Notes: generated by a model from the letters alone, not told the origin. Counted from the first letter of the stretch, positions 5,037 to 52,241 are shown. The stretch: DNA of 64,000 bases from a virus (IMGVR_UViG_3300019378_000951:1-64000); one strand, 5' to 3'. Made by a program: numbers and translations.

Positions 5037-5333
5037 ATGAAAATTTTAAATGTAAGGCAGTGCATTACCGAATATGTATATGAATTCTATATTGATATAA
5101 TTCCTAGCGCACTAGTGTTTAATATGAATACAAATCAAGTAGGCAAAGCGCTAGTAAAAAGTGATGAAGATTATATGATTCCTTATTTAAAGTATTCAAC
5201 ATTTGAGTATTATGACAATAATAATAAATTATGTTTTTGTGTACCATTATCTGATTATTACAAATCTAAAAAAACTGATATTTTGATTGATTCTACACTT
5301 GTAAAAAAATTTATTGTAGATCTATTATTATAA
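5037..5333 (+). CDS. Small protein, C-terminal-tag paralog family
   Basis: RBS GGAGG; LVFNMNTNQVG; ends KFIVDLLL. Confidence 0.75.
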   Translation: MKILNVRQCITEYVYEFYIDIIPSALVFNMNTNQVGKALVKSDEDYMIPYLKYSTFEYYDNNNKLCFCVPLSDYYKSKKTDILIDSTLVKKFIVDLLL

Positions 5334-5376
5334 AGAAATGATGGATATAAACTTTATTATAAGAGGAGACAATCAT

Positions 5377-5901
5377 ATGATGAATTATACTATAAAGAAT
5401 ATCGCACTGTTGGGAATAGCAATCGATAATGAAGATGTGTTTCAAGTAGCTTTAGCAAATGATGGTAAGTATATAAATGACGGTATGAAAAATTATTTCG
5501 TTTTGTATGTTCCACGAGAAAATGATAAAAGCTTATTTAGAGATTATATATGTATACCATTAGATAATATTGAAGATAGTTTAGATCTTATTAATTGGAA
5601 AGTAAATCTAATGAACGATAAATGCAAATGGATTGAATATTTTATTGTACCAGTAGATGAATATAGTCAAAAGTATAATTATGTAGAAACTGCTTATAAA
5701 GCATATGTTATGATAGATAGCAATACGTATACTGATGCTAAAGAATATAGTAATGGATCATTAGTTAATAAAAGATATGATCTTATAGAAAATGATTATT
5801 TAGAGAACAGAAAAGAATATGATAAGATTTTAGAAAAGTGTATAATTGAAATGAAAATTTCAGGAGAAGATTGGTGGTGTGAATGTGACGGCTCCAATTA
5901 A
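5377..5901 (+). CDS. Hypothetical protein, possible divergent family member
   Basis: RBS GAGGAG; KCIIEMKI followed by a short extension. Confidence 0.65.
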   Translation: MMNYTIKNIALLGIAIDNEDVFQVALANDGKYINDGMKNYFVLYVPRENDKSLFRDYICIPLDNIEDSLDLINWKVNLMNDKCKWIEYFIVPVDEYSQKYNYVETAYKAYVMIDSNTYTDAKEYSNGSLVNKRYDLIENDYLENRKEYDKILEKCIIEMKISGEDWWCECDGSN

Positions 5902-5933
5902 AGAGTAATCACATTATTTTTTGGAGGTAAGCT

Positions 5934-6311
5934 ATGCAAAGAATAGGCAGATGGATATTAGAGTATGATAGTGAAAGCTATTTAGTAAAAGACCTTTATT
6001 TGTACTGGGTAGTTTCTGACAATGATGCTCATGATAATTTTATGAGTTTTTGTATAGGTTATAATACATTTAACAATAACTTGGGATTTTTAATATATGA
6101 CAGTAATAATAAATGGAATAAAGATATTGAAATTATAGAAAGAATAAAAAATGATGATTTTCCTTGGATTGATATATTATTATTAAGTCATATTAATAAT
6201 GAAGACGACTATGAACCACAATATTATGAGTATATTAAATTTATAGAAGAAGTAGACATTAACGAAGTAAAAAGACTAATAGATAAAGAATTAGTAGATG
6301 ACTTATTATAG
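5934..6311 (+). CDS. Small protein, C-terminal-tag paralog family
   Basis: IGYNTFNNNLG; ends KELVDDLL. Confidence 0.75.
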   Translation: MQRIGRWILEYDSESYLVKDLYLYWVVSDNDAHDNFMSFCIGYNTFNNNLGFLIYDSNNKWNKDIEIIERIKNDDFPWIDILLLSHINNEDDYEPQYYEYIKFIEEVDINEVKRLIDKELVDDLL

Positions 6312-6321
6312 GAGGAAATTT

Positions 6322-6654
6322 ATGGATTTTAATATTGAAGATCCTATTGAATGTAAAACATTCGGAGTTTATGAATTTTGGGCAATATCTGAAGAATCTC
6401 GTTCAGGCGAAATGCTTGTTTATGATATAAACACAGAAACCATAGGAAAAGCCGTATTTTCTAATTCAGTTATAATAACTGAATATAAATTGAAGACATT
6501 ATTTACTTATAAAGATGCTGATGATAAAAATTGTAGTGCATTATCCATACCAGAATATATTAGAGAAATTAATGGTGATGATAATCAACTATCATTTTTA
6601 TACTTAGTAGATCCAATAAAAGTTAAAAAAATGTTAGTAGATATAATATTATAG
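6322..6654 (+). CDS. Small protein, C-terminal-tag paralog family
   Basis: RBS GGAGG; LVYDINTETIG; ends KMLVDIIL. Confidence 0.75.
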   Translation: MDFNIEDPIECKTFGVYEFWAISEESRSGEMLVYDINTETIGKAVFSNSVIITEYKLKTLFTYKDADDKNCSALSIPEYIREINGDDNQLSFLYLVDPIKVKKMLVDIIL

Positions 6655-6708
6655 GAGGAGTCTAATAAATTATTGATAGATGGTTTAATATAAGAGGAGG
6701 ATGATATT

Positions 6709-7107
6709 ATGACATTTAATAATACAATATGTAAAAGTGCTAATAATCATGAATTAAATGAGAATATATATGAAATTAGATTAGAATGGTATAGTAAAGG
6801 TATTGATGGTAATAATGAATTAATGTGGTTAACTTTGGCCTATGATGAAGATACTAAAGAATGGGGAGTTGCTGCTGATGAGACCGATTGTTCTTTAGAA
6901 ATGCGAAGATACAAATTATTTGAGTATATAGATCCTGACGGCTGTAGTTGTATCGCTGTTGATGTTGTTAAGTATTCTGAAGCTATATTACCTCCCAATT
7001 TAGAGTGTTATAGTCGAGATATTAAATTGCTATACAATGAATATACTAAAGACAAAGAAGGATTCTATAAATTTATTACAAAATGTATAGTAGATAATCA
7101 ATTATAA
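6709..7107 (+). CDS. Small protein, C-terminal-tag paralog family
   Basis: LAYDEDTKEWG; ends KCIVDNQL. Confidence 0.75.
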   Translation: MTFNNTICKSANNHELNENIYEIRLEWYSKGIDGNNELMWLTLAYDEDTKEWGVAADETDCSLEMRRYKLFEYIDPDGCSCIAVDVVKYSEAILPPNLECYSRDIKLLYNEYTKDKEGFYKFITKCIVDNQL

Positions 7108-7112
7108 GGAGG

Positions 7113-7514
7113 ATGATAAGCATGCAAGAAGTTATAAATGAATTAACTATAGAAGATATAAAAGTATTAGGATGTGCTTCTGATTTGCCTGATTTCTATG
7201 AATTAATCATAGACTTACATGCTCATGTTGCAATAGAACCATATTCTAGAATTGCAATAGGATATGATACTGAAGCTAAAAAATTGCATATTATTGAATT
7301 TAGTGATAGTGACGAATATGAGGATATAGACGAGTTTGTGATTAAGGAATATACTGATTGCGAAGGTTATAAAAGTATCATAGTCGATCCAGCATTTGTT
7401 GATATATGCCATAGACACATTATGAAGGATATAAGAGAATTTATACAACTTACAGAAAATGATGAAAGAATTTTTAAATTATTAGACAGAGCAATTTTAG
7501 AATATATATTATAA
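7113..7514 (+). CDS. Small protein, C-terminal-tag paralog family
   Basis: IGYDTEAKKL; ends RAILEYIL. Confidence 0.75.
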   Translation: MISMQEVINELTIEDIKVLGCASDLPDFYELIIDLHAHVAIEPYSRIAIGYDTEAKKLHIIEFSDSDEYEDIDEFVIKEYTDCEGYKSIIVDPAFVDICHRHIMKDIREFIQLTENDERIFKLLDRAILEYIL

Positions 7515-7552
7515 AATTGGAATACATTAGATAATGGGAGGATAAGAACTGA

Positions 7553-8062
7553 ATGATAAAAATTGCTGGCGTGCAATTAGAAAGTGTAGTAGATGGATAT
7601 GGTATACGTAATACAATATTTACACAAGGGTGTAAACATCATTGTAAAGGTTGCCATAATCCAGAGACATGGCCAGTGAACGCAGGGAAGTTGTTTGATT
7701 ATGATCAACAAATGAAGTTTATAAACAACTCTAAAGAAAATCCATTAATAGACGGTTTAACTTTATCAGGTGGAGATCCAATAATACAAGCACATGAAGT
7801 GTTAAAATTTATTAAATTATACAAAAAAGAAATTCCACATCATAATATATGGCTTTATACTGGATACACATATGAAGAGCTAATATCGATGAATGATGAA
7901 GATGTAAATGGAATACTTGATATGATAGATGTGTTAGTTGACGGAAAATTTGTGATTGAATTAAAGACTTTAGATTATGTTTTTAGAGGCAGTAGTAATC
8001 AAAGATTGATAGATATGAATAAAACTAAAAATGATAATATTGTTTTGCTTAAAGAAAAGTAA
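7553..8062 (+). CDS. nrdG: Anaerobic RNR activating protein (radical SAM)
   Basis: VDGYGIR, CKHHCKGCHN (CxxxCxxC), LSGGDP, RGSSNQR. Confidence 0.95.
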   Translation: MIKIAGVQLESVVDGYGIRNTIFTQGCKHHCKGCHNPETWPVNAGKLFDYDQQMKFINNSKENPLIDGLTLSGGDPIIQAHEVLKFIKLYKKEIPHHNIWLYTGYTYEELISMNDEDVNGILDMIDVLVDGKFVIELKTLDYVFRGSSNQRLIDMNKTKNDNIVLLKEK

Positions 8063-8093
8063 AAGAATAACCCCATATAGAGGTTATTCTTTT
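8061..8093. terminator. Bidirectional terminator between convergent nrdG and tail tube genes
   Basis: aaaagaataacc...ggttattctttt with A and T tracts. Confidence 0.7.
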
Positions 8094-8095
8094 TT

Positions 8096-8944
8096 TTATT
8101 GTATTCCTTTTGATTCACCAGTTTTACCTGCATATGGATGTTCAATAGAAGTTTTTTCACCATTAAGTTTATGATATGTTAAGAAGTCATTTGATGTATC
8201 ATAACCAGTATCGATATCAATTTTATCAGGTGGATCAAATAATCCTTCTGTTCTAAATCCATGTGTGTGTTTTAATAATGCTTGTGCATAAGCATCAACT
8301 TTAGCAGATATATGCATGTTACATTTTAATGGTATTTCAATTTCAACTACAGATTTATCTCCTTGATCAAAGTTAAAATGAGCTAGAGGTATTCTAGTTG
8401 GGAATACATTTGTAAAGTATGCAGCAAATTCTATATTATAATAATGAGTTGATGCATTACCGTCCGGTCTAGTTACGATATACATAAACTCACCAGTATG
8501 GTTTGCAGCTTTATACTCTTTTTGATATAAAGCAGGATATGTGGCTATACCAGTTTCAGGGTCTCTTATTCCAGAAGCCCAAGCTTGATAAGCATTTTTT
8601 ATTGGAGAGCCACTGAATTCTTGATGTTTTATTGTAATTTCAGTATTGGCCTTAGTAACTCCAGCTGCAACATTATATTCGTTATTAGCAAATCCGTATT
8701 GATAAGCTTGGGTATCTATTTCTATATCAGAAATACCTTGTAAAGATTTAAAGTTTCTTTGAGTTAGTTCTTTGAAACTAGTAAAACCTGCGTCATCTAG
8801 CCAATCTGGTAGTCTAGTCCAGACAATAAACGCATAACCTGTAACTAACGGGTCAAAGTTTTGTAATTCATTATGAGTAAGTTCTAAACCACCATGGAAA
8901 AAATTCCTAGCATCTACCTCATAATTATGTCCAGGTAAAATCAT
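8096..8944 (-). CDS. Putative tail tube protein
   Basis: Immediately downstream of the sheath; E-x-SGSPI...W..GIRDPETG pattern, beta-rich. Confidence 0.7.
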   Translation of the reverse strand: MILPGHNYEVDARNFFHGGLELTHNELQNFDPLVTGYAFIVWTRLPDWLDDAGFTSFKELTQRNFKSLQGISDIEIDTQAYQYGFANNEYNVAAGVTKANTEITIKHQEFSGSPIKNAYQAWASGIRDPETGIATYPALYQKEYKAANHTGEFMYIVTRPDGNASTHYYNIEFAAYFTNVFPTRIPLAHFNFDQGDKSVVEIEIPLKCNMHISAKVDAYAQALLKHTHGFRTEGLFDPPDKIDIDTGYDTSNDFLTYHKLNGEKTSIEHPYAGKTGESKGIQ

Positions 8945-8966
8945 CCATTATCATTCCTTTCTTCTA

Positions 8967-11900
8967 TTATTTAACAACATTTATGTTTATAATTACACGT
9001 TCTATAATTCCATAGAATGATACCGAAATTGCAACTCTTAATATTTTTTGAAGTTTATCGTAATCTGAACTATAAGCTCTTGCTGAAATTTCTTCACAAG
9101 ATTTATTATTTTTATATTTAGCTAAGAAACTATTAAGTGATTGTTGGAATTTATTTATAGTTTCAGATTCGTTGAATTCGAATATTACGTCTTCTGCCAT
9201 AACTTCAACATTACGTTTTATATCAAGAGCAACCAGCATATTATTTATATTAACAAGCGCATCATTTTTAGTAGTAGTAGTTAATTGAGTTCCGAACTTA
9301 TTAAATCTACCATTAGTTTCAACGTAGTTAACTTGTCTATTATACATTTCTTCTTTTTGTAATTCGTTAGGTATATAACTTATTTGAGGTAATGATACTC
9401 CCCCTCTAGCGTTACCTGCCATTGGATATTGTAATCCTGTAGTTATAGCATGAGCTGGTATCATCTTAGCAAGTTGATAAGACATTGTTACTCTTACATC
9501 TTTTCCTTGGAACTCATCAAATATGATACCATCTTGTGCGTAGATAGCTGCCATATTAGTAGTTATAGGGAATTTATTAGCTCTCCATGCAAGTGCTTGA
9601 GATGGATTAGCACATATTTCAGTATCTAACCATGCAAATAAGTCTTTTCTTATATTAGATGCTAAATCAACAATTGCATGTTTAACTGAAACATTATAAT
9701 TTGCATCAAGAAGATATTTAAATGGCATTAATCTTCTATTAAGTATATTTTCGTCTATTAATCCTTTATATCCTTTTACTAATAAACTATCTATATTAGC
9801 TTGACGAACAGTAGCCGATAATAAAGAGTTATTATAAGATATACAACCATCGCTACCTTTATTTAATCTGCTTATTGTTCCTTGACCTTCAAGTGTATTA
9901 GTTAATACATATGTTTTTAAATTTTCTAATGCTGCAGTAGCTTCAGCTATTGCATCATTTGCGTTTTCTAATACTAGTTTCATAGTTCCAGTAGTCGCAG
10001 ATTCTGGCATATGATAGTTATCTAAATAAGCTTTTCTACATTTATAAACACCTTTTACGATAGTAGTTCTACATCCAGCTCCGAATGCTGATAATAACGC
10101 AAATTTACTTACTATTGAGTAGTGTTTACTAAATGCGTAAAGTGCTGATAATGGTGCTATTAAATTCATAGATTTATTCATCAATTCAAATAATTGTGGT
10201 ATTAAACCTACAAATGAATCTCCAGTATCTTCATCTTCAAATCCATTTAATTGATCTATTATGTATTGATCTGTTAGGTAAGTCATACCTAAACTATTTA
10301 TTTCTTTTCCTAATCTGTCAAGTTCTTTATATATTTCGTCATGAGCTTCATCAAATGGATATACACTGTCGCATTCAACTTCGTGTGTCATTAATTTAAC
10401 AAAATCTCCAACTTCAAAGCCTTTGTCAAATATCATTGGATCATTTATACATATTAAGTTATCTGCTATTAAGCTGCCATCTTCGTATCTATCGTTTTCA
10501 ACTACAATTAGTATATCTGGATCAACTTTATTACTCATAACTTCAACATATTTTCCAGGAACTACATAGTCTCCAACTACAGCTCCTAAGCCTTCAATTC
10601 TAGGATCATCTACTAATATAAATCTATCTCCTAATTGAACAAGAACTTTTCCATCTGCGTCTAATAATTTATTTCCGTTCTTATCTATAAAATAATAAAC
10701 TAATTGTTCATCTGTAGAATTTTCTAAATCTATCACTTTATCTACTACTAGAATTGCATTTGGCATATTTCTTCCAGCAGCACCCACGTTAGTAAATAAT
10801 TCCTTACCTTTAACTGCATTTGTTACATAGTGATTGAACTCTGGGTCTAAGCCCCTAACACCTATAGTTAAATTAGGTACTAAATCAACACTGAAAGTAC
10901 TAAATATACTAGAAACTGCAGCAAGTTTTTCATTTGCGTCAGTTATAGTTTCAGCATATATTAATTCTTCTTGTAATGCAAGCATTGCAGTTTGTATTGA
11001 TACTAAAGTATATACAAATGATTCAGTAGAGTTCATTATAGATCTCCAGTTATTTACGAAAGTTTTTAAGCTAGCTCCAACTGTTGTATATCCAGCATTT
11101 CTTTCCATTATGCTTATATATGGAATTATATCTTCCATAACATCTATTAAATCATCTATACATAAACTAAGAGTTAAATCTCTTTCATATAATGCTTCTG
11201 TTCCATGTTCTAAGAAATAACCTTTTTCATCTCGTTCATATACAGATCTTGAATAATAAGAAACTTCCCCTTCAACTAATTGAGATGGTAATATTCCATT
11301 AAGGAATAATGTTCTTATCGTGTTATGCATAGCTGCATCTAGGTTATCTTCTCTAGCTTTATAAGTTCCGCCTATTATATCGTATAATACTGCATTATCT
11401 CCTTCACCCAATACAATACCAACTTGTATTAATCTATCTAATTGTGATGCATATCTTTTTTGTAAGATTTCACCTAAAACAACTTTCATTTTTTCAAGCA
11501 TTATTTCTGACGTATTATAAAGCGATTGTCTTAGCATATTGTCTATTGAAATTGTAGTTAGTACTCTTTCATCATCTGCCGCTGGTATATTAAGTGCGGC
11601 ATACCCATTATTTACTATAACTTCACCGTTAATATCGTATTTCATAATAGACATATGTACATCTTCATATCTTAATGTATCATCATCATAATAAGTTTCA
11701 GGCTGACCTGCTACCATTCTAGATTGACCGCTAACAATATCTATAACTTGTGGGTGAACATTAGGATTTATTAATGTAGCTAATTTATAGAATACATCTT
11801 CATTATATATACATCTAACAACTTGACTGTAAGTTTCAAGAACATCTTTTATGAACATTGAATCCCCAGTATAAGACATTGCATCTGGATATAAAGATAC

Positions 11901-12575: not shown

Positions 12576-12620
12576 GTTTGTTAACACTCCTTTACTTCGA
12601 GATTTTGTTAAGTCATTTCG

Positions 12621-13349
12621 CTAATATTTTGTTATCTTCTCAATAGGTGAGACTATTTCTTTTTCTCCATTTATATTTTTACGTATAGATGAAAGTATAG
12701 AATCATCCATATTTTCAAAAGATAATGCCGCGAATGTACTATTTATTGGTGGTAAATTTTTAACATTTGTCATTTTGTAATCTATATCTTTAGTTCCTTT
12801 GAAATTTTCACCTATTATTTTTCTAAAAGGAACGGATACATCATCTTTACTTCTGCATAATTCAGCAACTGTCATTTCAAGAATGCACCCAGGATTACCT
12901 ATGTTTACCTTATTTAATATAAGATTGTCAAAATATAATTTGATTATATCAGAATATGGTATTGTTGAAGGTAACTTATTACTGTGTAATGCAAATATGA
13001 AGTTTTTAGAATTAGCACCGCTTTGTTCTTTTTTGACGCTATCTAAAAACATCATACCATTTTGTAATATAAACACATAGTTGGGTTCAATTTCTTCATT
13101 AACTGTAACATTTTCGTTTCTATAATCGTCAAACTCAAATATTACATTCATTGGCAGTTTAAATGTGTGTTTTTCAATTTTTCCTTTTTCATCTAACACT
13201 TTAAACTCAAATATTCCTAATGTGCTTATTTTATTACCTATAAATTTAGCAACATTTTTATCAAAGTAATATTTAGGTATGTAGATTTCCATTAAATAAC
13301 CGTCAAAATAAATAGCATCATCTACTTTTTTTAACCATGAATATTTCAA
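12621..13349 (-). CDS. Phage multisubunit RNA polymerase, beta-prime C-terminal-like fragment
   Basis: STFAALSFEN resembles RpoC SFLSAASFQE; LEMTVAELCR resembles IEVIVRQM; likely TTG start after GGAGG. Confidence 0.65.
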   Translation of the reverse strand: MKYSWLKKVDDAIYFDGYLMEIYIPKYYFDKNVAKFIGNKISTLGIFEFKVLDEKGKIEKHTFKLPMNVIFEFDDYRNENVTVNEEIEPNYVFILQNGMMFLDSVKKEQSGANSKNFIFALHSNKLPSTIPYSDIIKLYFDNLILNKVNIGNPGCILEMTVAELCRSKDDVSVPFRKIIGENFKGTKDIDYKMTNVKNLPPINSTFAALSFENMDDSILSSIRKNINGEKEIVSPIEKITKY

Positions 13350-13441
13350 ATCACTAAACACCTCCAATATATAATCTTATGTTTCTTGATATGGTATTGT
13401 TTTATATAAACAAATTAAATTAATCAAGGATAGATTTAAAT

Positions 13442-14224: not shown

Positions 14225-14430
14225 AATAAATACCTCCATGATTTGTATATTGAATCAATTTTATATAGAATTTTTATTCATTATAAATTTCTATCTTTTC
14301 CCATTTACCACTTTCATTCATTATAAATGTTCCTTTATTTTTAACCTGTACCAACACTCCATCAACAGGTACAATCTCATTTAACTGATCCATATTTTCT
14401 ACTAAAATTACTCTCATCATACTTAACCTC

Positions 14431-24086: not shown

Positions 24087-24476
24087 TTATATTAAATTAA
24101 GAATTATAGTTTTATTAAATTCTTCAATAAGTTCTTCTTTTAGACTTTCAGGAAGTTCTTTAAAATATACAGGGTCGTCACTTTTGTAACTTTGTACGTA
24201 TCCAAACTTATCTTCATATAAAAACCAAGATACTACAATATCGTTAATATCTTCTTTAGTTATATATCCATGTAATGCTTTATACAATAAATCTTTATTA
24301 AAATTTCGGCATGTTCTTTCTTCAATACATATACCTTCTGAATATCTAATGTTGCCATTTTCGTCTAAGAAATAAAGTTTCTTATCAAAATATACGCGAA
24401 CACAATCATTTCCTTGACCTACATCTGTATAAACATCAGAAATACTTATATTATACATCAAATTAACAAAAGCCAT
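24087..24476 (-). CDS. Small protein with C-terminal-tag-like helix
   Basis: Ends KTIILNLI. Confidence 0.65.
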   Translation of the reverse strand: MAFVNLMYNISISDVYTDVGQGNDCVRVYFDKKLYFLDENGNIRYSEGICIEERTCRNFNKDLLYKALHGYITKEDINDIVVSWFLYEDKFGYVQSYKSDDPVYFKELPESLKEELIEEFNKTIILNLI

Positions 24477-24518
24477 AATTACCTCCATAAATTTAATTAT
24501 ATTAAGGAGTACAAATTT

Positions 24519-24908
24519 TTATATTAAATAGTCTATTAATGCTAATTGTATCATTTTAATTAAATCTGATTTAATATTATTATCTATGATATCAGCTAAT
24601 TTGTAATTGTAGAGATTTTCATTATCTTCATAAATAACTAATTTATTAAAGTCATCGTCTATAGCTGAACCAGTTAATAGTCTATCAATTAAATTATGAA
24701 CTTCTTCTTTTGTACCATAGTGTCCACAATATCTACTTACATCAATACGATCTGTCGTTATTAAATCTGGGAACTTTGTATTATCGTTGACAAAAACATA
24801 TAGTGGTGCATTAAATTTAATACTTAATGTTGTATATACTCCTTTAAAGTCTTTTACTTCAATTTTACAAACTTCAATTTTACCATTATAATTTAATTTA
24901 TATTCCAT
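24519..24908 (-). CDS. Small protein with C-terminal tag
   Basis: Ends LALIDYLI. Confidence 0.65.
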   Translation of the reverse strand: MEYKLNYNGKIEVCKIEVKDFKGVYTTLSIKFNAPLYVFVNDNTKFPDLITTDRIDVSRYCGHYGTKEEVHNLIDRLLTGSAIDDDFNKLVIYEDNENLYNYKLADIIDNNIKSDLIKMIQLALIDYLI

Positions 24909-24938
24909 AATATATACCTCCAAATTTAATTTAATTTT

Positions 24939-35501: not shown

Positions 35502-35939
35502 TTATAATGCTAAATCTACAATATATTGAAACATAAATTTTTTATATTCGCTGTAGTTTTCTTCTATCCAAGGAACAATATAATTGACATAGTCTTTAAA
35601 AGTTTCAGCTCTACATCCATCTAATGATTTATGACTTAACGCAATTATTCCTCCTCCGACTTTAAACTCAATAACTGGTTTTTTAAAACTTGAGTTGTAT
35701 GAGTTTAGATTCCTAGTAGTCCACCAATATCCATACTTTCCAGTTTCTATATCAAATAATACAGAAACCTCAGCAAAATTCTTTTCTAGGTCAGTACAAC
35801 TATAACAACGTATGACATGATCTATATAACGATTATCTATTACTTCATCAATTTCTATATCAATAATTTTTTCATTATCAATTTTAACTTTAAACCAACC
35901 ATGTTTTAGATTCATTTCTGGCTTTCCTATTATACTCAC
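35502..35939 (-). CDS. Small protein, C-terminal-tag paralog family
   Basis: VLFDIETGKYG; ends QYIVDLAL. Confidence 0.7.
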   Translation of the reverse strand: MSIIGKPEMNLKHGWFKVKIDNEKIIDIEIDEVIDNRYIDHVIRCYSCTDLEKNFAEVSVLFDIETGKYGYWWTTRNLNSYNSSFKKPVIEFKVGGGIIALSHKSLDGCRAETFKDYVNYIVPWIEENYSEYKKFMFQYIVDLAL

Positions 35940-35988: not shown

Positions 35989-36378
35989 TTATATCATAAA
36001 ATTTATATATGCTTTCTTTAATTCTTTATTGTCATCTTTTGATAGCCATGGGTGTATTCTATTAATATATTCGTTATAAAGATATTCTGTACTAAATATA
36101 TAATCGTCGTCGCAATCTTGATTTAGTATACAGTTTTCGTCCAATGCAAATATAGTATCATCATGATATTCAAATTTAAAATAATAAGAAATTTTTTTAA
36201 AATAATCATCATTGTCAATAGTTTGATTTTCAAATACACGCCATGCAAAACCAAATTCGTTACTATCAGTATCATATAGTATAGTTATAGCGCAATCATT
36301 TTCATTTTCGTTAAAACCTTTTATTAATATATAATACTTGTCTTTGTTGTCACATCTTTCGAAACTATCTATATGCAT
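35989..36378 (-). CDS. Small protein, C-terminal-tag paralog family
   Basis: ILYDTDSNEFG; ends KAYINFMI. Confidence 0.7.
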   Translation of the reverse strand: MHIDSFERCDNKDKYYILIKGFNENENDCAITILYDTDSNEFGFAWRVFENQTIDNDDYFKKISYYFKFEYHDDTIFALDENCILNQDCDDDYIFSTEYLYNEYINRIHPWLSKDDNKELKKAYINFMI

Positions 36379-38875: not shown

Positions 38876-39310
38876 TTAAATCATTGAATCAATTATTGCT
38901 TTTTCTACATGTTCATGGAATTTTTCTGGGTCTTCTGCAATTTCATTTTTAATTTTTTCTAAAAATCTAACATCCGCATCGTACATTACTTTATTAACTG
39001 CAAATAGTCCAGGAACTTTTGAAATTGCGAGCTGCCATACTGTCGGTTTTTGCATATTGTGAAATGTTACGTTGTAGACCCAATCATTTAATATTGCCTC
39101 ATTTGTGTATAACATTTCTTTTATTGTAGCTTCGAAATCTATTGTGAATTCTCTCGTAGATATGTTATATAAAAATACTAAATATAAAAAATGTTTAGAG
39201 TCGTCTTCATACGCTTTTATTGAAATCCAGCCTTCTAGACCCTCCTCTGAAGTTTCTACGTCAACAGAATATTTTCTGTCTTTAAATATAAACGGATTCA
39301 ATTTTGTCAT
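38876..39310 (-). CDS. Small protein, C-terminal-tag paralog family
   Basis: FLYNISTREF; ends KAIIDSMI. Confidence 0.7.
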   Translation of the reverse strand: MTKLNPFIFKDRKYSVDVETSEEGLEGWISIKAYEDDSKHFLYLVFLYNISTREFTIDFEATIKEMLYTNEAILNDWVYNVTFHNMQKPTVWQLAISKVPGLFAVNKVMYDADVRFLEKIKNEIAEDPEKFHEHVEKAIIDSMI

Positions 39311-40603: not shown

Positions 40604-40623
40604 ATTAAATACCCCCTCTAATT

Positions 40624-42159: not shown

Positions 42160-42222
42160 TAGTTTTAAACCTCCGCATCTTAATTATTCTTAATACAACA
42201 TATGGATTTGTTCAATATAATT

Positions 42223-45200
42223 TTATTTGTAAACTACATTTATATTATAATCATATTTTAAATATAGATTTATTCCGTCGTCTTGGCTATCATCATATTT
42301 TAATATTTTTTCGATATTTAAATATTCTGGTACATAATCATTTATTTCATCTGATGTCATATTATTAAAACCTTCAAATGCATTGAATATTTTTTGTGTA
42401 TCTTCACCTGCGACCTTTCCAAATTCAACATATTGAATTGAATCGAAATTAATTTCTAGCTCTCTTAAAAGATTTGATATTGCAAATAAACCAGTATGGT
42501 TACTCGCCTCAACAAAATCACTAATGAATTCTTTAATTATACTATCCTCATTATTGTCGATTATACGATTTGTATAAATAGTAAAATTTAAAGGAATTGA
42601 TGTAACATCAACGTAATCAAAATTTTCATATTTAAAATCTAAATTATTTGTATCCGTTACCCAATATTTTGAATATCCATATGTATTAGTAAATTTTAAA
42701 TCTAATGAATTATTATTTTCTAAAGTGTTAATTAAATCATAAGAAACCGTATCATATGCATCTAAAATATCTAAAATTTCATCATATTTTTGTTGAAAAT
42801 ATGAATACTCTATTAATGGCACCTGTTTAAGATCATAATATTCAGAAATCACATCTCCATCGCCATTTCTTAATTTAACAGGTAATATATCGCTATATGT
42901 ATAATTTTCTAAATTTTTAAATAATGATATTTCTTTAACATTGCTATATACACATGCTGTTGCGTAATCATGTACATCACTCATATAATCAAAATTTCCA
43001 TATTTAGTAATATCTGCATTGTCTTTATATAAAACCGCTATTTCTATATTTATATTGTCTGTTAAGAAAACTGCTGCAGTTTCGCCGCCTTCTAAATTTT
43101 TTGGATTCTCAAGCTCATATAATGACCCAACTGTCATAATCTCTTCATTTTTATTTATAATATCTCGATAAGTTACAATATCAGCTGCATATTTAAAAGA
43201 GTCATCAATACGTTCCATTTCTAAACAACCTTGAACTTCACCATGTTTATCATATACTATCATTCTGACTTTACATTTTGCATCTAACTCATCGATAGTT
43301 AAATTTGTATTAAGGTCTACAGTTATATCGTATATTTCGGAATTTATATCAACATTTGGTTTTTTGTCTATTTGAATATTACCAAATGTAAAATTTCGGT
43401 CTACAAAATTATTAACATGAACTAGTTGTAGTTTATATAGTTCATACATTGAAGTAATATAATAATTACATTTAAGTATAGGAGAATCTATTATTTTCAA
43501 TGTATATGGTATGGCATAAATTATAAATCTTTTATCTAAAAGATAATCATCTGAATTGCATATAAAAGAATATTTATTTGCTTCACATATAACTGCATCT
43601 TCTATATTAATATTATTATTTAATCCTAAATTTAAATTTGAATTTTTTATATAAATTGTATACTCATTTTTGTTACATTTTATAATAGGCCATTCTAATA
43701 AAAAATCATCTTTTATTAGATCAACTTGGTTTGATATTGTATCGTGTAATAATATTCGACGATTTATTCTTGTTCCGTCTATAGTTATTTTATATTGAGT
43801 TTCAACTAACATATCATCTTTATTTTTTTCATAATACTTATAGACGCCTTCTACAAAATCATACATAAAATCTAAATTTTGAGATGTTTTTTCTATTATA
43901 AATTTATTGTCTAAATCAACGCTTATCATATTATTTTCAAATAACATAAATTTGTCATTTACTCTGTCATATAATACTTTAGAATTATCTCTAATCATAC
44001 CTTTAGCATGATCTTTTAAAATATTTGCAAATCTGTCATCCATATTTTCATGTATTTTAATTGGTTCGTCTAAATATTTTTTACTAATTAACAAATGAGG
44101 GGCTGTATTTGTAGGTATTATTTTACCTCCTCTTTCTCTCATAGTAATATAACCTGTAAATATGCGTCTTAATATATCATTTCTTTTTTTAAAAAATTCA
44201 ACATTAGAACCATTGACTGATGTATTTGTATTAAAATTTGTAAAATAATAATTTAAGTCTGTATCGGTTATTATATTTTTACGGGTAAGCATAGCTTCTG
44301 TAATTTTATTTTTTAGTTCTGTAGTTGTATACCTATTTTTACCACCTGCAGAGTTTGTTATTGGAGTTACTTGCACGCCCATATTTGAAAATTCATTAGT
44401 ACTTGAAAAATTTACGTCTACAGTTCCAGTGTATGTAAAGTTACCAGCTTCTCCATATGTAGTATACATTACTATTTCAACTTCACTATTTTTACGAGGT
44501 CTAAATGAGTTGCTATCAGCTCCAAAAGATATTTCTAAAGTAGACCCCATAATAGCATAATGACAAAATGGTAATCCGCTAGAATCAGAATACTGATTAT
44601 TTTGATAACTCTTAATTTTAGTTTTTACTCCATTATATATGTAATAAACCTCGATATATGCAATTTGTCCAGTAAATGAAGTAGTTAAGAATAAGTTATC
44701 TAAATAATTATTGCTAGTTATTGAAAACGTTGTAGATTTTTTATATAGTTGATATAGATCTATACCTATAAAAATATAATCCCCATCAGTTGTAGATTCG
44801 TTCCAAGTTTTTAAATAAGGATTATTTGTGACTTTTAAAAATGGGAATACGTCTTTATCAGTATCATATTTTACAGATATAGAATACGATCCAGTTATTT
44901 CATTTTCTTTTATTATAAATTGTAAATCATATGGTAATCTAAATGGTATTTGTTCTATTGAAAATACGTAATCTTTACTTATTGTTAATATATAAACTTT
45001 TCTAGCAAAACCTTCAAGTGTTGTATCTATTGATTGTATTGGCTTTTTTAATGGTGAATTTATAATATCATCTCTACGAATTGCAAGAGTTGCTCTCATT
45101 TTTGCAGGAATAGCTAATTCCATATCAACATTTGTTAATTTAGCAAAATTTGCAATAGATTCAGGAAATGATGCGGTATTTAAAAAATGTTCATCATATA

Positions 45201-45390
45201 ACACATTTCTATGATAAACATTATTTTTAATTTCGTTGCTTTGTATTTCATTATTGTAACCGAATAAACCAGCTTTAAGCATATTAACTGCTACTTCATT
45301 TTCAGGATCTATTCTGAAATATTTAAGTGCTATTTTAAACCATTCATCTTGAATGGGATAGCTGGAAGCCCCTACTTTAATATTTGCCAT
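42223..45390 (-). CDS. Putative baseplate wedge protein (gp6/J-like)
   Basis: FLNTA, LEISFG, YTTYGEAGN, SAGGKN. Confidence 0.65.
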   Translation of the reverse strand: MANIKVGASSYPIQDEWFKIALKYFRIDPENEVAVNMLKAGLFGYNNEIQSNEIKNNVYHRNVLYDEHFLNTASFPESIANFAKLTNVDMELAIPAKMRATLAIRRDDIINSPLKKPIQSIDTTLEGFARKVYILTISKDYVFSIEQIPFRLPYDLQFIIKENEITGSYSISVKYDTDKDVFPFLKVTNNPYLKTWNESTTDGDYIFIGIDLYQLYKKSTTFSITSNNYLDNLFLTTSFTGQIAYIEVYYIYNGVKTKIKSYQNNQYSDSSGLPFCHYAIMGSTLEISFGADSNSFRPRKNSEVEIVMYTTYGEAGNFTYTGTVDVNFSSTNEFSNMGVQVTPITNSAGGKNRYTTTELKNKITEAMLTRKNIITDTDLNYYFTNFNTNTSVNGSNVEFFKKRNDILRRIFTGYITMRERGGKIIPTNTAPHLLISKKYLDEPIKIHENMDDRFANILKDHAKGMIRDNSKVLYDRVNDKFMLFENNMISVDLDNKFIIEKTSQNLDFMYDFVEGVYKYYEKNKDDMLVETQYKITIDGTRINRRILLHDTISNQVDLIKDDFLLEWPIIKCNKNEYTIYIKNSNLNLGLNNNINIEDAVICEANKYSFICNSDDYLLDKRFIIYAIPYTLKIIDSPILKCNYYITSMYELYKLQLVHVNNFVDRNFTFGNIQIDKKPNVDINSEIYDITVDLNTNLTIDELDAKCKVRMIVYDKHGEVQGCLEMERIDDSFKYAADIVTYRDIINKNEEIMTVGSLYELENPKNLEGGETAAVFLTDNINIEIAVLYKDNADITKYGNFDYMSDVHDYATACVYSNVKEISLFKNLENYTYSDILPVKLRNGDGDVISEYYDLKQVPLIEYSYFQQKYDEILDILDAYDTVSYDLINTLENNNSLDLKFTNTYGYSKYWVTDTNNLDFKYENFDYVDVTSIPLNFTIYTNRIIDNNEDSIIKEFISDFVEASNHTGLFAISNLLRELEINFDSIQYVEFGKVAGEDTQKIFNAFEGFNNMTSDEINDYVPEYLNIEKILKYDDSQDDGINLYLKYDYNINVVYK

Positions 45391-45436
45391 AATACTCCCT
45401 CCTTTTTATTATTCAAAATTAAGTTATTAATTATAT

Positions 45437-46735: not shown

Positions 46736-46830
46736 TAATAATGTTGTTGTATAATATTAGATTGTTACGATATATTTTACAAATTTAAGGTTTATTAACA
46801 TACTAATAATTTTTTAAGGAGACAATAATT

Positions 46831-46983
46831 ATGGATAAAAAAGTAAGATTTGTAAATATTATTAATATAGAAAAATTAAAAGAAGAATTAAAAAATGAAA
46901 TTAAAAATGAATTAATATTAGAATTTTGGAATATTTTTAAGAAAGAAGATATAATTGATCTAACGGATGATACTAAAGAATAA
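46831..46983 (+). CDS. 50-aa hypothetical protein
   Basis: RBS AAGGAG and AACA-N6-TA at 46797. Confidence 0.45.
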   Translation: MDKKVRFVNIINIEKLKEELKNEIKNELILEFWNIFKKEDIIDLTDDTKE

Positions 46984-47064
46984 ATTAGTAATATTAAAAG
47001 TGATAGTATAACAAACAATCTAATATTGAAAATTTTTTATAAAGTAATGGAGGTTAAAGAAACT

Positions 47065-48345
47065 ATGAATATAGACGGCTTTTTAGATTTACTATTACAT
47101 GGTAAAGAAATAAAAGATGACATAAAGTCTTTTAAAGATATGAATAAAGTTACTAACGGTATAAAAGCAAGAGCTAGAGATTTAATTCTTCAATACCCAG
47201 TTTTAGTTTCAAATACATTATCTCAAGAAACAGTATCAGCTGTAACAAGAGCATTAGAACATGATTACGCAAACCATATGGTATTATTAATAAGCGACCA
47301 AAATTTAGATGGAGGCCCATCTACTAGTGATTATCTTAAAGGATTCCATAATAACGTATTAGAGTCTGGAAATTTACCATCTTCAGTTCTTAATAAAGTT
47401 AATGGAGAAATACTTAACGAAACAAATCAAAATCTATTTAATGAAATGTCATTAAATGATTTAACAGTTAATAGCGTTAAAATGAAATTATTTAACGAAG
47501 ATACTAATCAAGATTCAAAAGGTAGATCAGCTGAAGCTATTGCTAAAATGAATATTAAAAAAGCTGATAATTATGATAAAGAATTTGAAGCTAAAATGAA
47601 AAAAATGGAATTAGAAATAAATGACAAAAAAACAGCACAATTAGTAAATTCAGATGTCAGAAAATTAAACGATATGTCTCCAACATTTGTAAAAGGTAAT
47701 ATAAGTGTTATGTTACCAGGTGCATCTGTTGCTGTTGAAAAACCTATACATTTCGCTGTTAAAGCAGTAGCTCATTTACTAGATTCAGATGAAATAGTAT
47801 TAAATTTATCTAATAATCTTAATGATCCATCATTATTAGTTAAATTTATAGAATGGACTACAGGTGAAAAACGTTTATTTACAGATTTAATAATGCAAAA
47901 AGATGATATGAAAAGATTAGCTACGTCTAAAGGAAAAGGCGCTCACTGGTTTAGAAAATTATCTCTTATGGCAAATAACGCTAAAATGAGAAAATCTTGG
48001 GCACATATAGCTAGTAAAATGCCATGGGGTAAAAAAGCAGTTCAATTAATAAATGATAGAGTACCAATACCTACTATGTCATTAGTTATAAGTAAATCAG
48101 AAGTAGATCAAATAAGAGCTAAAACTGGTATAGACTTACTTCGTAAAGAAGGAGATATAAGAGCGCTTATGGATAGATTTTATTTATTAACATTTATGAT
48201 AGTAGATGATGCAACTGAAATGGTATATTTATATGATGAAGTATCTAAGAGATATGTAACTTATAGTATAAAACAATTAAAAGGTTTTGCTAAAGATGAT
48301 TTATTAACACCAGAACAAGCTATGAAACGTTCATTAATGAGATAG
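47065..48345 (+). CDS. Putative virion structural protein
   Basis: Late promoter at 47014; clustered LxE sites. Confidence 0.55.
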   Translation: MNIDGFLDLLLHGKEIKDDIKSFKDMNKVTNGIKARARDLILQYPVLVSNTLSQETVSAVTRALEHDYANHMVLLISDQNLDGGPSTSDYLKGFHNNVLESGNLPSSVLNKVNGEILNETNQNLFNEMSLNDLTVNSVKMKLFNEDTNQDSKGRSAEAIAKMNIKKADNYDKEFEAKMKKMELEINDKKTAQLVNSDVRKLNDMSPTFVKGNISVMLPGASVAVEKPIHFAVKAVAHLLDSDEIVLNLSNNLNDPSLLVKFIEWTTGEKRLFTDLIMQKDDMKRLATSKGKGAHWFRKLSLMANNAKMRKSWAHIASKMPWGKKAVQLINDRVPIPTMSLVISKSEVDQIRAKTGIDLLRKEGDIRALMDRFYLLTFMIVDDATEMVYLYDEVSKRYVTYSIKQLKGFAKDDLLTPEQAMKRSLMR

Positions 48346-48360
48346 GGAGGTTAACGAATT

Positions 48361-49326
48361 ATGTATGATAATAGATCGGAACATGATATATTACTTGAAA
48401 GTATGGTAACTACTTATTATGCAGATATTAAATATGACGTATTAACTGAAAGTGAAAAATTAAAAGCTGCAGATCAATTAATTACTAAACTTTTCAAAGA
48501 TATTAAAAATAAAACTTTAAAAATGAATGATAAAGATATAGAAAAAACTAAAGGAGATTTTTCTAAGCACCCAAACTATAAAGAATTATGCAGAGCTTTA
48601 AGATTTCTTGAAGAATCTGCAAACTCACAAAATAATGCAGGGTTAAGTGAAAAAGTTAAAGTATTAAGAGAAACTGAAGGGTTATTAATATCTAATAAAG
48701 ATGTATTTAAAAATGCATTCCAATATGGTAATGATGTTTTAGTAATATCATATTTTAATATATGTGCAGGACTTATAATTGGTATAAGTGAATGTATATC
48801 TCTAAATACACAAATAATACAATCTAAAAAATATGGAGCTGATTCTGTAGGTAATAGATCGTTTGGTGGAAAATCTAACTATATTGAAGGACTAAAAAGT
48901 GCTAATGCTGTAATGAAAAGTAATAAATTACGTATGATAAACGATACAATAGTTGTTAAAAATGAATCATTTACAAATAGCGTAAAAAATATTTGGAACT
49001 CTACTAAAATTCCTAGAAGAATAGGATTAGGAGTTGCTGGTGTTTATCTTTTATTAAGTGCAGTTAAAAGAATATGTTTTACATACTTCCATCAAAGAGT
49101 AAAACTAGCTGACCATTTAAGAAATACTGCAGAATACGTTCAATTAAAATCTGATGGGGTATCAGATAATAATATTAAAGCTAAACAACAAAAATGGATA
49201 GATAAATTATTAGCATTTGCTGAAAAAGTTGATGTTGACAGTACTAATGCTAATGCTAAAGCTGATGCAGATATAAAATCGTCAGATCAAGAAATGTCTG
49301 AATTACCAACTACTTGGATTATGTAA
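48361..49326 (+). CDS. Putative virion structural protein
   Basis: LLES and LTES motifs; same operon. Confidence 0.55.
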   Translation: MYDNRSEHDILLESMVTTYYADIKYDVLTESEKLKAADQLITKLFKDIKNKTLKMNDKDIEKTKGDFSKHPNYKELCRALRFLEESANSQNNAGLSEKVKVLRETEGLLISNKDVFKNAFQYGNDVLVISYFNICAGLIIGISECISLNTQIIQSKKYGADSVGNRSFGGKSNYIEGLKSANAVMKSNKLRMINDTIVVKNESFTNSVKNIWNSTKIPRRIGLGVAGVYLLLSAVKRICFTYFHQRVKLADHLRNTAEYVQLKSDGVSDNNIKAKQQKWIDKLLAFAEKVDVDSTNANAKADADIKSSDQEMSELPTTWIM

Positions 49327-49338
49327 GGAGGTAATTGT

Positions 49339-50118
49339 ATGACCATTCAGGAAATATTAAACGAATCATTTTATATAGAAATGAGTCTTTCAAATCTTGG
49401 TATATATAATGAAGGAATTGGTGATGTTGCAAGTTCAGTATACAACGCTGTAGTTAGAATGATTGAGAAATTTATAGGTTGGGTTAGAAATACAGTTATA
49501 CCTTTTTTCCAACGTATAGGAAAAATTATTGCAAACCTTCTTAGAAAAACTAAGTTGGGAAGAAAATTGCTTAAAAAACATGATGATAAAGTGGCAGCAG
49601 CTAAAGCTACAGAAGAAAAAATACAGGCTGAACAAGAATATGACAATAAAGATGCTGAAATGATGAATAATTTAAAAATAAAAGTAATGCAGTATCCTAC
49701 TTGGTTAAATTATATAGCTAATAGTTTAATAAACCCGAATGCAATATTAAAGCTTGCTAATTCTACAGAAGATAGATCTGCTGATATAAATGATTTAGAA
49801 GAAAAAATTTCTAAACATATAGAAGATGGTCATGAAGTGAAAATAATAGTAGGTTTTGATAATGCGAAACCTGAAGTTATAAAACAATTAGAAATTATGG
49901 AAAAATCAGTTCAGACGTTTGAATCAAATTCAAAAGCAATAATTACAAGATGTGAAGAATTGAAAAGAAAACTAGAAGGTAAACAAGACAATGGATCTGT
50001 AATGAGAGCTAAAAATACTTCAGCTGTAATACAAGTTATCACTCAAAAAACAGCAGAATCTGTAAAACTATCAGCTGAAATTATTAAAAAACTTAAGTTT
50101 GCATCTGATCCTTTCTAA
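49339..50118 (+). CDS. Putative internal head protein
   Basis: LNES and YNEG followed by an amphipathic helix. Confidence 0.55.
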   Translation: MTIQEILNESFYIEMSLSNLGIYNEGIGDVASSVYNAVVRMIEKFIGWVRNTVIPFFQRIGKIIANLLRKTKLGRKLLKKHDDKVAAAKATEEKIQAEQEYDNKDAEMMNNLKIKVMQYPTWLNYIANSLINPNAILKLANSTEDRSADINDLEEKISKHIEDGHEVKIIVGFDNAKPEVIKQLEIMEKSVQTFESNSKAIITRCEELKRKLEGKQDNGSVMRAKNTSAVIQVITQKTAESVKLSAEIIKKLKFASDPF

Positions 50119-50126
50119 AAAAAAAA

Positions 50127-50154
50127 TAGAGAATAACCATAAGGTTATTCTCTA
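50127..50154. terminator. Bidirectional hairpin terminator
   Basis: tagagaataacc-ataa-ggttattctcta. Confidence 0.65.
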
Positions 50155-50913
50155 TATTAATACTGACAGCAATCCTAATATAAGATTAAGATTATTATTG
50201 TGTATACAATACTTCATCATTGATTCATCAATACTGTCAATTTCCATTAAATTGTCATTATAAGTATTGATTATATAACTATTAAATACTAAATCTTTAT
50301 AGTACCCTACAGGCAATTCAAATTCAGTAAATTCACTTTTCAAATATATTAAATCGTCTATATAATCATCTACACTGTTTAATATCTTACTAAATATCTT
50401 TTTACAATCTTTCATTAAGTAATTCATATGATGTTCAACTGCATCCTTATTATAACCTTTAACATCTAATATATCCTTTATCGGATCATAGTAAAATTCT
50501 TTACCTAATATATTCGCATAAAATATATATGAGTTTTTAGGTCTAAATTCAATATAATCTCCGAATTTAGTTTCTTTACAAGTTTTAGTTGTAAATATTG
50601 CATCTTTCTTTATACTTATAATATCTCCATCTTGTATATCGTTATATTCAAAGAATGCTTGTCTAGCTTCTATAAAACCATTCATTAATTGCCTACCTAG
50701 TTGTGGTTTATCTTTTATCATTTTACCTATTGTAATAGTTCTATCTTTCTTACTCATTGATTCTAATAACTGTAATTCAGAATTACTTAAATACTTTCCT
50801 TCTCGTAGTATACTGTATCCACCTTCTTTCATGTCGTATTCAGTAATTCTAATATTACGTACTAATGTTACAGGTGCTGTATAATTGTGTTTATGATACA
50901 GTACACTCGCCAT
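50152..50913 (-). CDS. Small divergent DNA polymerase palm-like protein
   Basis: ITEYDMKEGGYS (motif A-like) and ISIKKDAIF (motif C-like). Confidence 0.5.
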   Translation of the reverse strand: MASVLYHKHNYTAPVTLVRNIRITEYDMKEGGYSILREGKYLSNSELQLLESMSKKDRTITIGKMIKDKPQLGRQLMNGFIEARQAFFEYNDIQDGDIISIKKDAIFTTKTCKETKFGDYIEFRPKNSYIFYANILGKEFYYDPIKDILDVKGYNKDAVEHHMNYLMKDCKKIFSKILNSVDDYIDDLIYLKSEFTEFELPVGYYKDLVFNSYIINTYNDNLMEIDSIDESMMKYCIHNNNLNLILGLLSVLI

Positions 50914-50923
50914 TTTATACCTC

Positions 50924-51217
50924 CTAATCTAATATAATTTCAGCAGCTAAACGTTTTTTTAATTTGTCACTTATTAGTTCTAGTGGTATCTCCCTACCAG
51001 TTATCTGTTCTATCCATTTTTCTCTACCATTAAATGCGTTATATGTGATATGAGATAACATAACAGCTTTACCTTCACAAACTATTACCATAAATGGTTT
51101 AAACATTATTAAATAATTGTCCTCATATTCCCCCTTATCAAAATGATAAAATTTCATATCGATTGTTATAGGTTCATCATTAAGTAAGTACGTATACTTA
51201 CTTTCTTTTATTATCAA
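50924..51217 (-). CDS. Hypothetical protein
   Basis: Ends KRLAAEIILD (tag-like). Confidence 0.5.
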   Translation of the reverse strand: MIIKESKYTYLLNDEPITIDMKFYHFDKGEYEDNYLIMFKPFMVIVCEGKAVMLSHITYNAFNGREKWIEQITGREIPLELISDKLKKRLAAEIILD

Positions 51218-51251
51218 TGGAATCAGTCCTCTTTCTGTCTGTAATTATTAG

Positions 51252-51800
51252 TTAGTTTTTGTTTATACTTTTAAAATATCTATTGAAGAATGTTATAATT
51301 TTATCTCTGACTTCTTCAACAGTTTTATACTCAGGTGGGTTATGGACAAAACATAAATTCATTACTTCCATTATATTCCATCTTTCATTCATAATATATG
51401 AGATATCTCTGTTCTGTCTTTCAACTAATTGTCTACTATCTATCATTACAATTATATAATCAATTCCACACTTGTCTAATGGGAATTGATTTATAAAATC
51501 ATCAATTCCCATTTTGTTAAGAATTATAGTATTATACTTACCATCAACCAAATCAAATATAGTACCGTATCTTTCTCCATTTATATTAGTGCGACCTATT
51601 AAATTATCTTTAATTTCATCATATTCATCTTGTGTAACGAATTTATACGGATCTCCTTGTTTTTCTCCTTCTCTCATAGGCCTAGTGCTTACTTGTTGCA
51701 ACTTATGAAATTCATTTGGAAATTTTTCTGATAATAATTTTTCTATCATCGATTTACCACTTCCTGATGGACCAGCCACTATTATAACCTTTTTATTCAT
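51252..51800 (-). CDS. gmk: Guanylate kinase
   Basis: GPSGSGKS; STRPMREGEKQGDPYKFV; YGT. Confidence 0.85.
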   Translation of the reverse strand: MNKKVIIVAGPSGSGKSMIEKLLSEKFPNEFHKLQQVSTRPMREGEKQGDPYKFVTQDEYDEIKDNLIGRTNINGERYGTIFDLVDGKYNTIILNKMGIDDFINQFPLDKCGIDYIIVMIDSRQLVERQNRDISYIMNERWNIMEVMNLCFVHNPPEYKTVEEVRDKIITFFNRYFKSINKN

Positions 51801-51863
51801 AATTATTACCTCCCATTGATTTAATTATAATCATGGGTTAATTTAAAAATTATCTTTAGTTAA

Positions 51864-52241
51864 TTATAATTGATAATCTATTATAACTCTATCAAATAAT
51901 TTTGGTATGTCATCTACAGAATTAATAAATTCAGTATAACTTTTAAATAAAGATGTTTGCATCGATAATTCTCTGGCTATAGAATCAGTTACTTCTATAT
52001 TATTCCTAACAATTCCTAACATTCCATTTCCCATAGTGTCAGTAGTATATTCATAACAAAATAATTCATCGTTTTCAGTTAGATAAGTTTCTAATCCATA
52101 TATCTTAGATTCAGGGACATATGCTATATATCCATTACATAAAGCACATCCATTTTCACTAAGTTTAACATACTTTATTACAAATACTGTTTTATCATTA
52201 TTGCAATCTTCAACTACCAAATCATAATTTCCAAATCTCAT
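51864..52241 (-). CDS. Small protein, C-terminal-tag paralog family
   Basis: IAYVPESKIYG; ends RVIIDYQL. Confidence 0.7.
   Translation of the reverse strand: MRFGNYDLVVEDCNNDKTVFVIKYVKLSENGCALCNGYIAYVPESKIYGLETYLTENDELFCYEYTTDTMGNGMLGIVRNNIEVTDSIARELSMQTSLFKSYTEFINSVDDIPKLFDRVIIDYQL

Follow-up and report, generated by a model that had tools for sequence, protein, structure and literature searches.

A shared C-terminal helix end, probably structural, in an expanded family of small proteins of a jumbo phage

Introduction

Why should many small and seemingly dissimilar proteins of one phage end in almost the same six residues? The question is raised by a viral DNA stretch (IMGVR_UViG_3300019378_000951:1-64000), called the window below, which makes up the first 64 kb of one virus record of 216,390 bp (whole record: 27.5% GC, CheckV completeness 84%). 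Between positions 5,037 and 52,241, dispersed genes encode proteins, typically ~100–145 amino acids (aa) long, that close with the pattern phi-phi-[DE]-x-x-phi-COOH, where phi is a hydrophobic residue. A first-pass annotation of the window read them as a highly diverged family of variable bodies with a fixed terminal tag, through which they would dock on one partner, for instance an AAA+ protease or a sliding clamp. Here we compared the endings, the bodies, the predicted structures and the genomic surroundings of these proteins across the whole record, and we incline to a different answer: the ending is probably the structural end of the last helix in an expanded family of small alpha/beta proteins that may act early on the host.

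The host phage could be placed by one long gene. The 1055-aa open reading frame (ORF) at 42223–45390 (−) is 33–37% identical to proteins of AR9, PBS1, Listeria phage LPJP1 and Staphylococcus S6-like phages, and because of this identity we regard the virus as an uncultured relative of the AR9/PBS1-like jumbo phages, which have uracil-DNA and two RNA polymerases. Metagenome contigs from ENA and Logan (up to 330 kb) carry identical genes; an IMG/VR scan with the 1055-aa protein returned no relatives.

Results

The ending is concentrated at the C-termini of small proteins

All nine C-termini quoted in the first-pass annotation were found exactly at the genes named, and its four variant endings (35989, 24087, 50924 and 5338; genes are named here by their lower coordinate) were present as well. 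The pattern extends over the whole record. In a genome-wide set of 270 non-overlapping ORFs from our own greedy call, the strict ending [ILVM][ILV][DE]xx[ILVM]-COOH closes 29 proteins, against 0.61 expected from the internal frequency of the same hexapeptide (binomial P ~1e-38); the enrichment among C-termini that a shared tag implies thus holds genome-wide. A loose version of the motif closes 35 proteins, with an expectation of 2.5. Paralogy inflates such counts, but when each sequence-level group was counted once there were still at least 10 occurrences against 0.61 expected (Poisson P ~1e-9). Moved inward by 1–11 residues, the motif was rare (0–6 cases per offset).

All proteins with the strict ending are 98–174 aa long, and all lie within the 102 proteins of 80–180 aa. 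None of the large proteins among the 270 ORFs has it, and the loose motif occurs on two of them (533 and 1892 aa), about the number given by chance. The tail codons track genome-wide usage, serine being written as TCT, AGT, TCA and AGC and aspartate as GAT and GAC. Because the synonymous codons vary in the tail as they do elsewhere in the genome, the constraint acts on the protein, and a conserved nucleotide element as the cause of the tail was ruled out. The observation is real, and it is larger than first noted.

Most of the bodies are homologous

BLAST joined the proteins only into small clusters. Iterated profiles, in contrast to this fragmentary picture, expanded a nine-member seed to 22 proteins, and the addition of metagenomic homologues gave 24 members, including the window genes 6709, 7113, 35989 and 38876. 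With the last 15 residues cut from the profile and the targets alike, the search still recovered the same 22–24 proteins (E ≤ 5e-7), and the next body-only ranks were again occupied by tagged proteins (194596, 35502, 195927, 6298 and 51864; ranks 25–35 of 270; Mann-Whitney p 0.04). For the peripheral groups, local hhalign gave low probabilities only.

The bodies are recognized by an S-D-x-x-[GE]-R-[YF]-[YFW] signature on one strand pair, an [IL]-[YF]-D-x-x-x-K-x-[LF]-Y-x-[WY] hairpin, a Y...D-N..G signature and a [WF][WL] helix, after which the tail follows. In the core profile, no tail column is as conserved as the Arg of the RY motif, Y51, D52 or W/Y61. Two body motifs picked out by the first-pass annotation correspond to real conserved columns of this profile: phi-x-[YF]-[DN] is Y51/D52 in the hairpin, and [FY]EY-x-D is Y80..D..G.

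A portable tag on unrelated variable bodies is therefore not supported, since 24 members are joined by their bodies alone and the core body motifs surpass the tail. The impression that the proteins otherwise look very different was correct only in part, since homology can be demonstrated for most of the bodies; in sequence, group B and the 5934 type share only the tail with the core. The idea of one unrecognised family, dispersed and in arrays, with an unusually fixed free C-terminus, survived. The family counts ~35–40 copies including peripheral members, 13 of them in this window, and makes up ~13–15% of the phage genes. The median pI of its proteins is 4.7, compared with 5.8 in other small proteins. 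Taken jointly with the structural interpretation of the tail below, it is somewhat probable that they form a single undescribed family of small, mostly acidic alpha/beta proteins that has undergone a lineage-specific expansion in a jumbo phage.

The tail is predicted as an ordered terminal helix

A logo of the tail, made from 33 own and 37 metagenomic sequences, reads K(−12), I/V/L(−10), K/R(−8), A/L/M(−7), I/L(−6), V/I(−5), D/E(−4), S/x(−3), M/L/I(−2) and L/I(−1), so the shared ending can be written K-x-phi-x-[KR]-[A/phi]-phi-[VI]-[DE]-x-phi-[LI]-COOH. AlphaFold2 modelled the core member 7113 (22 paralogues) with a pLDDT of 84.5 and a pTM of 0.77, as one short helix, six strands and three helices in this order. 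Its terminal helix, residues 118–132, is among the most confident parts of the model (pLDDT 93–95). For the group B protein 24519 (12 relatives; pLDDT 80, pTM 0.75), the model begins with three or four long strands, continues with two helices and a small hairpin, and closes with a long helix at 110–128 (pLDDT 85–90). Both modelled groups are thus predicted to combine a beta-meander with a terminal helix, and in both the tail appears as an ordered helix rather than as the flexible peptide that one would look for in a portable tag.

No known structure or family was matched. Foldseek found no match at E ≤ 0.001 in PDB or BFVD (all E > 0.1), and Pfam, PHROGs and a PDB sequence profile gave no match to the family. 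The best VIA results for the models were 7fi4_A (AcrIF13; Z 4.7, 61 aligned residues, rmsd 2.4) and 8ssm_D (CdiI immunity protein; Z 4.5, 73 aligned, rmsd 3.8). AcrIF13 is in the VIA lists of both models, and alignments to compact single-domain proteins reach the last residues. Z scores of 4.5–4.7 show only the common "meander plus C-terminal helix" arrangement.

One resemblance was seen within the body. The PD40 beta-propeller proteins P0022, P0026, P0031, P0037 and P0048 each have several matches to the SDxxGRY...YD hairpin region of the family, and the sheet of the family may be similar to one blade of a propeller. Pfam PD40 itself was matched by none of the members, and we read the likeness as one at the level of motifs.

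We propose that the shared ending consists of the final two to three turns in a C-terminal amphipathic helix. From the geometry of such a helix, the hydrophobic or small residues of the stripe −10, −7, −6, −3 and −2 would pack against the beta-sheet, K/R(−8) and D/E(−4), one turn apart, could form an intrahelical salt bridge, and V/I(−5) and L/I(−1) would close the core. The tail would then be conserved mainly as a keystone of the fold, inherited through duplication. The members themselves may be early or middle, non-virion modules of host interaction (takeover or anti-defence), in which the variable sheet face and loops would meet a different target in each member. Overall, we slightly favour the explanation that the tail is the structural end of the last helix in an expanded small alpha/beta family of probable early host-interaction proteins.

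Some deviating endings fit a structural element for which a free end is not always necessary. In the variant 5338 (5338–5901, +; 187 aa), the sequence KCIIEMKI is internal and is followed by a 13-residue Cys-rich extension; its match to the family profile is not significant. A related phage has a 170-aa orthologue in which the motif and the extension are both retained. The 203117 type has an extension of two to four residues and the 204729 type is without the final hydrophobic pair, and both states are conserved in orthologues, as is the altered end of the 149415 type.

The same helix could instead be an oligomerisation element, with homo- or heterodimers formed through the conserved stripe while the rest of the protein diverges. 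In the last two helix turns, the hydrophobic positions −6, −5, −2 and −1 take up about two thirds of the circumference, and the helix is kept across groups whose bodies differ; both points suit such an element. The monomer models, however, are already confident (pTM 0.75–0.77), and we consider dimerization through the tail very improbable.

Points that weigh against a purely structural tail

Several observations are harder to accommodate if the tail is conserved mainly for the fold, and we gather them here. A meander and a terminal helix are predicted in both modelled subgroups, but the middle secondary-structure elements of the two models are different. The position of the end is fixed: 60 of the 66 aligned sequences end exactly 7 residues past K/R(−8), while the N-terminal lengths range over 8–38. 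When the profiles of group B and the 5934 type were compared with that of the core, only the last 18–23 residues aligned (E 2e-3 and 4e-4), and the tail therefore outlasts all other sequence features. Between homologue pairs the mean identity is 0.65 in the tail against 0.49 in the body. The best-kept residues, K(−12), K/R(−8), V/I(−5), D/E(−4) and L/I(−1), lie on one helical stripe. In the divergent 149415 type, −8, −5, −4 and −1 are kept whereas −6 and −2 are polar, as would be expected of a functional surface. In addition, the proposed packing of the tail follows from helix geometry, and the suggested function in host takeover or anti-defence comes from context and analogy. As the most persistent feature of the superfamily, the tail fits a keystone helix and a conserved interaction surface equally.

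These points lead to another explanation, in which the helix end is a common handle, its stripe and free carboxylate docking the paralogues on one partner, with the ClpC-ClpP of the phage as the best candidate. The proteins might then form an adaptor library that delivers host targets, or they might be early proteins with a built-in degron for timed removal. That the tail is the sole similarity of the core to group B or the 5934 type, that its end is fixed and that the conserved stripe mixes charged and hydrophobic residues all suit a handle. On the other side, the prediction makes the tail a well-ordered helix within the domain, body motifs are better conserved than the tail within the core, the motif of 5338 is internal with a conserved extension, and unrelated proteins carry the tag no more often than chance. 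We regard a common handle as rather unlikely, and the candidate partners below add arguments on both sides.

ClpC, ClpP and the sliding clamp as candidate partners

The phage encodes both components of a ClpC-ClpP protease. ClpP is at 193596–194150 (+), outside the window, and a family array lies directly downstream of it. A ClpC-like AAA+ unfoldase occupies 155619 to about 160600 (+) and has a Clp_N domain, a short linker and an LGF ClpP-docking loop; it is split by two introns, which hold two LAGLIDADG-type ORFs. AR9, LPJP1 and Madawaska have neither ClpP nor ClpC, nor the family. This neighbourhood, the domain make-up of the ClpC-like protein and the joint absence from the three phages favour a handle, and there is a precedent in SPO1 Gp53, a small phage protein that binds the host ClpC at its N-domain and linker (PMC6873191). 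The co-occurrence of the family with ClpCP, on the other hand, comes from a single lineage. The MecA domain PF05389 had no genome match at E ≤ 0.1 and the 22 members had no Pfam match, so a MecA-like adaptor domain was not found.

A complex prediction of the ClpC N-domain (L012:619-1080) with 7113 gave an ipSAE of 0.01 (mark 0.32). The ClpC chain entered this prediction without an alignment because no relatives of its N-domain were found among longer proteins, and the value is not evidence either way. The AAA+ protease suggested by the first-pass annotation thus exists in the phage, as ClpC and ClpP, but an adaptor or degron role of the family, though conceivable, is unsupported. The specific version of the handle, in which the helix end plugs ~35 small proteins into the phage ClpC-ClpP as an adaptor library or as self-destructing early effectors, seems to us decidedly unlikely.

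Docking on a sliding clamp, the other partner put forward early, was rejected. Like the clamp-binding peptides (QL[SD]LF; (S/T)LDFL-phi in T4), the tail has a C-terminal hydrophobic-acidic-hydrophobic pattern, but it has no Gln or aromatic (Phe) anchor, its −3 position is mostly Ser or another polar residue, its −1 position is L/I only, and it is predicted to be helical, not extended. The motif is thus a poor fit. A phage clamp (PF00712, PF09116) was not found in the record, which is an estimated 84% complete, and a host clamp is conceivable.

Genomic context and expression signals

Family genes are located between nrdD and nrdG, around gyrA, beside an RNase II/R-like gene, beside ClpP, and next to a nucleotide-kinase-like gene that was judged by eye from its P-loop. 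For AR9, a late-promoter motif (AACA-N6-T[AG]) and an early-promoter consensus are described (PMC5312081). The late motif was upstream of 2 of 40 family genes compared with 44 of 230 others (Fisher p 0.04), and an AR9-type early-promoter-like element, TTTTAAATATATATTAT-N6-G, was upstream of 38876, 203117, ClpC and the block running into ClpP and its array. Because of the context, the depletion of the late motif and the early-like sites, expression of the family is, by analogy with AR9, likely early or middle and non-virion.

These data bear on whether the tail might be a capsid-packaging signal, similar to the targeting sequence of T4 internal proteins or to encapsulin cargo peptides, by which the family would be injected with the DNA. 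Such a signal would suit small, acidic proteins with a variable body and a fixed terminus, as at the T4 internal-protein loci. The genes, however, stand among nrd, gyrA, kinase, RNase and ClpP genes and not in structural modules, the AR9-type late motif is depleted upstream of them, and some are behind early-promoter-like sites. Packaging is barely plausible as an explanation.

The TTTTAAATATATATTAT-N6-G element also occurs in the window at 423, 7501, 39374, 41338 and 53340 and at ~30 further sites genome-wide, and many genes have it 45–95 nt upstream. At 7501 it overlaps the ILEYIL-stop codons that end 7113 and is oriented towards nrdG. Another abundant motif, AAATTAAATT(AAATT), is directly upstream of the GGAGGTA Shine-Dalgarno sequence at 67 sites genome-wide (e.g., 24932, 26990, 41284, 52858 and 53315 in the window) and is particularly dense among the small genes of the 106–115 kb block. 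In appearance it is closer to a translation or leader element than to a promoter, and as a signal specific to the family it was rejected, being a leader that stands just before Shine-Dalgarno sites generally. In several family arrays, a GC-rich hairpin with a T-run after it stands only 10–25 nt ahead of the ribosome-binding site of the leading gene (5037, 35502 and 38876; 124552, 201768 and 205858), a distance that leaves no room for a promoter between hairpin and gene.

Distribution and copy turnover

A profile search of 1.84 billion representative proteins returned 48 matches, about half of which were the phage's own. The remaining ones were unnamed proteins on short ENA, Logan and JGI contigs, nearly all with the same ending, and the few long matches were PD40 propeller proteins. 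The family was absent from AR9, LPJP1 and Madawaska, and a megablast of the array against the phage collection gave no match. Judged from these searches, the distribution of the family is restricted and its evolution fast.

In the record, arrays lie at 5.0–7.5, 124.5–127.4, 129.5–130.7, 194.6–196.3 and 201.8–206.2 kb, and there are single copies as well. A related metagenomic phage (L013:242-2661) has an nrdD-nrdG array syntenic with 5037–7514 of the window; it contains an extra 112-aa paralogue and is without an orthologue of 5037 at that place. This difference is direct evidence of copy turnover, that is, of gain and loss.

Members in the window

The first array of the window is between the last piece of nrdD and nrdG. 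Its first gene, 5037 (5037–5333, +; 98 aa), ends in IVDLLL and is peripheral: iterated profile hidden Markov models tie it to 6322 and 6709, and its body-only E is 1.5. After the variant 5338 comes 5934 (5934–6311, +; 125 aa, LVDDLL), the body of which has no detectable homology to the core and which has three metagenomic orthologues at 54–63% identity, with the tail kept. A paralogue of 5037 follows at 6298–6654 (+; 118 aa, or 110 aa from the ATG at 6322; LVDIIL). The last two genes are core members, 6709 (6709–7107, +; 132 aa, IVDNQL), with a body-only profile E of 4.6e-7, and the modelled protein 7113 (7113–7514, +; 133 aa, ILEYIL).

The other window members are on the opposite strand. Group B is represented by 24087 (24087–24488, −; 133 aa), which has the degenerate tail IILNLI, and by 24519 (24519–24923, −; 129 aa from the ATG at 24908), which ends in LIDYLI and is similar to the core only in its last 18 residues. 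The peripheral member 35502 (35502–35939, −; 145 aa, IVDLAL) keeps the F-D hairpin and was found with a body-only E of 0.044 (rank 27 of 270). Two core members are 35989 (35989–36378, −; 129 aa), where Asn replaces Asp/Glu in the tail YINFMI, and 38876 (38876–39310, −; 144 aa, IIDSMI; E 2.4e-7), which has an AR9-type early-promoter-like site 64 nt upstream. The peripheral 51864 (51864–52241, −; 125 aa, IIDYQL) had E values of 9.7e-4 with the full profile and 0.43 with the body only. The doubtful variant 50924 (50924–51217, −; 97 aa, AAEIILD) had no profile support and was rejected as a likely non-member.

Two neighbouring features were noted. The nrdD gene (2717–4973, +; locus L014) is in several separate ORFs, and on a related contig the NRDD Pfam matches fall on products of 68 and 165 aa, a pattern that suggests interruption by introns or inteins. 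A phage-encoded chaperonin of the Cpn60/GroEL family is at 57804–59501 (+; Pfam E 3.5e-28).

Discussion

Large paralogue expansions are a known kind of event in jumbo phages. Bacillus phage G has a zinc-ribbon family of ~35 copies, also a lineage-specific expansion (Iyer et al. 2021, PMC7824862). As in phage G, we found tens of diverged small-domain paralogues in one giant phage, with a narrow spread and a role presumably related to conflict; unlike the zinc-ribbons, the proteins described here are predicted to have an alpha/beta fold without metal ligands, their copies are both dispersed and in tandem, and their free C-terminus is unusually invariant.

Other systems resemble the family in single respects. 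Like AcrIF13 (7fi4) and CdiI (8ssm_D), the members are small, acidic and predicted to have a beta-meander with the C-terminal helix packed across it, but there is no sequence similarity, and Z scores of 4.5–4.7 are too low to tell relatives from common arrangements. T4 internal proteins have hypervariable bodies and a short constant terminal sequence; their signal is N-terminal and cleaved and their genes are late, whereas in this family it is a C-terminal helix that stays constant, in a non-structural context. MecA has no sequence or profile similarity to the family. If the family used the phage ClpC, SPO1 Gp53 could serve as a model by analogy, with the difference that Gp53 is a single gene acting on a host enzyme, whereas here there are many genes and both ClpC and ClpP are encoded by the phage.

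If the tail is purely structural, it is a caution that a "shared tag" on "unrelated" proteins may be the last signature of a diverged paralogue family. A phage-encoded ClpC-ClpP pair is rare, and if tail-dependent binding or turnover were true, this could be a viral system for programmable proteolysis. The family has no annotation and no structural relative, solved or predicted, and is scarce outside a few metagenomic contigs; such families are where giant phages keep host-specific weapons, and this one offers a defined set of targets for finding new inhibitors of bacterial functions and defences.

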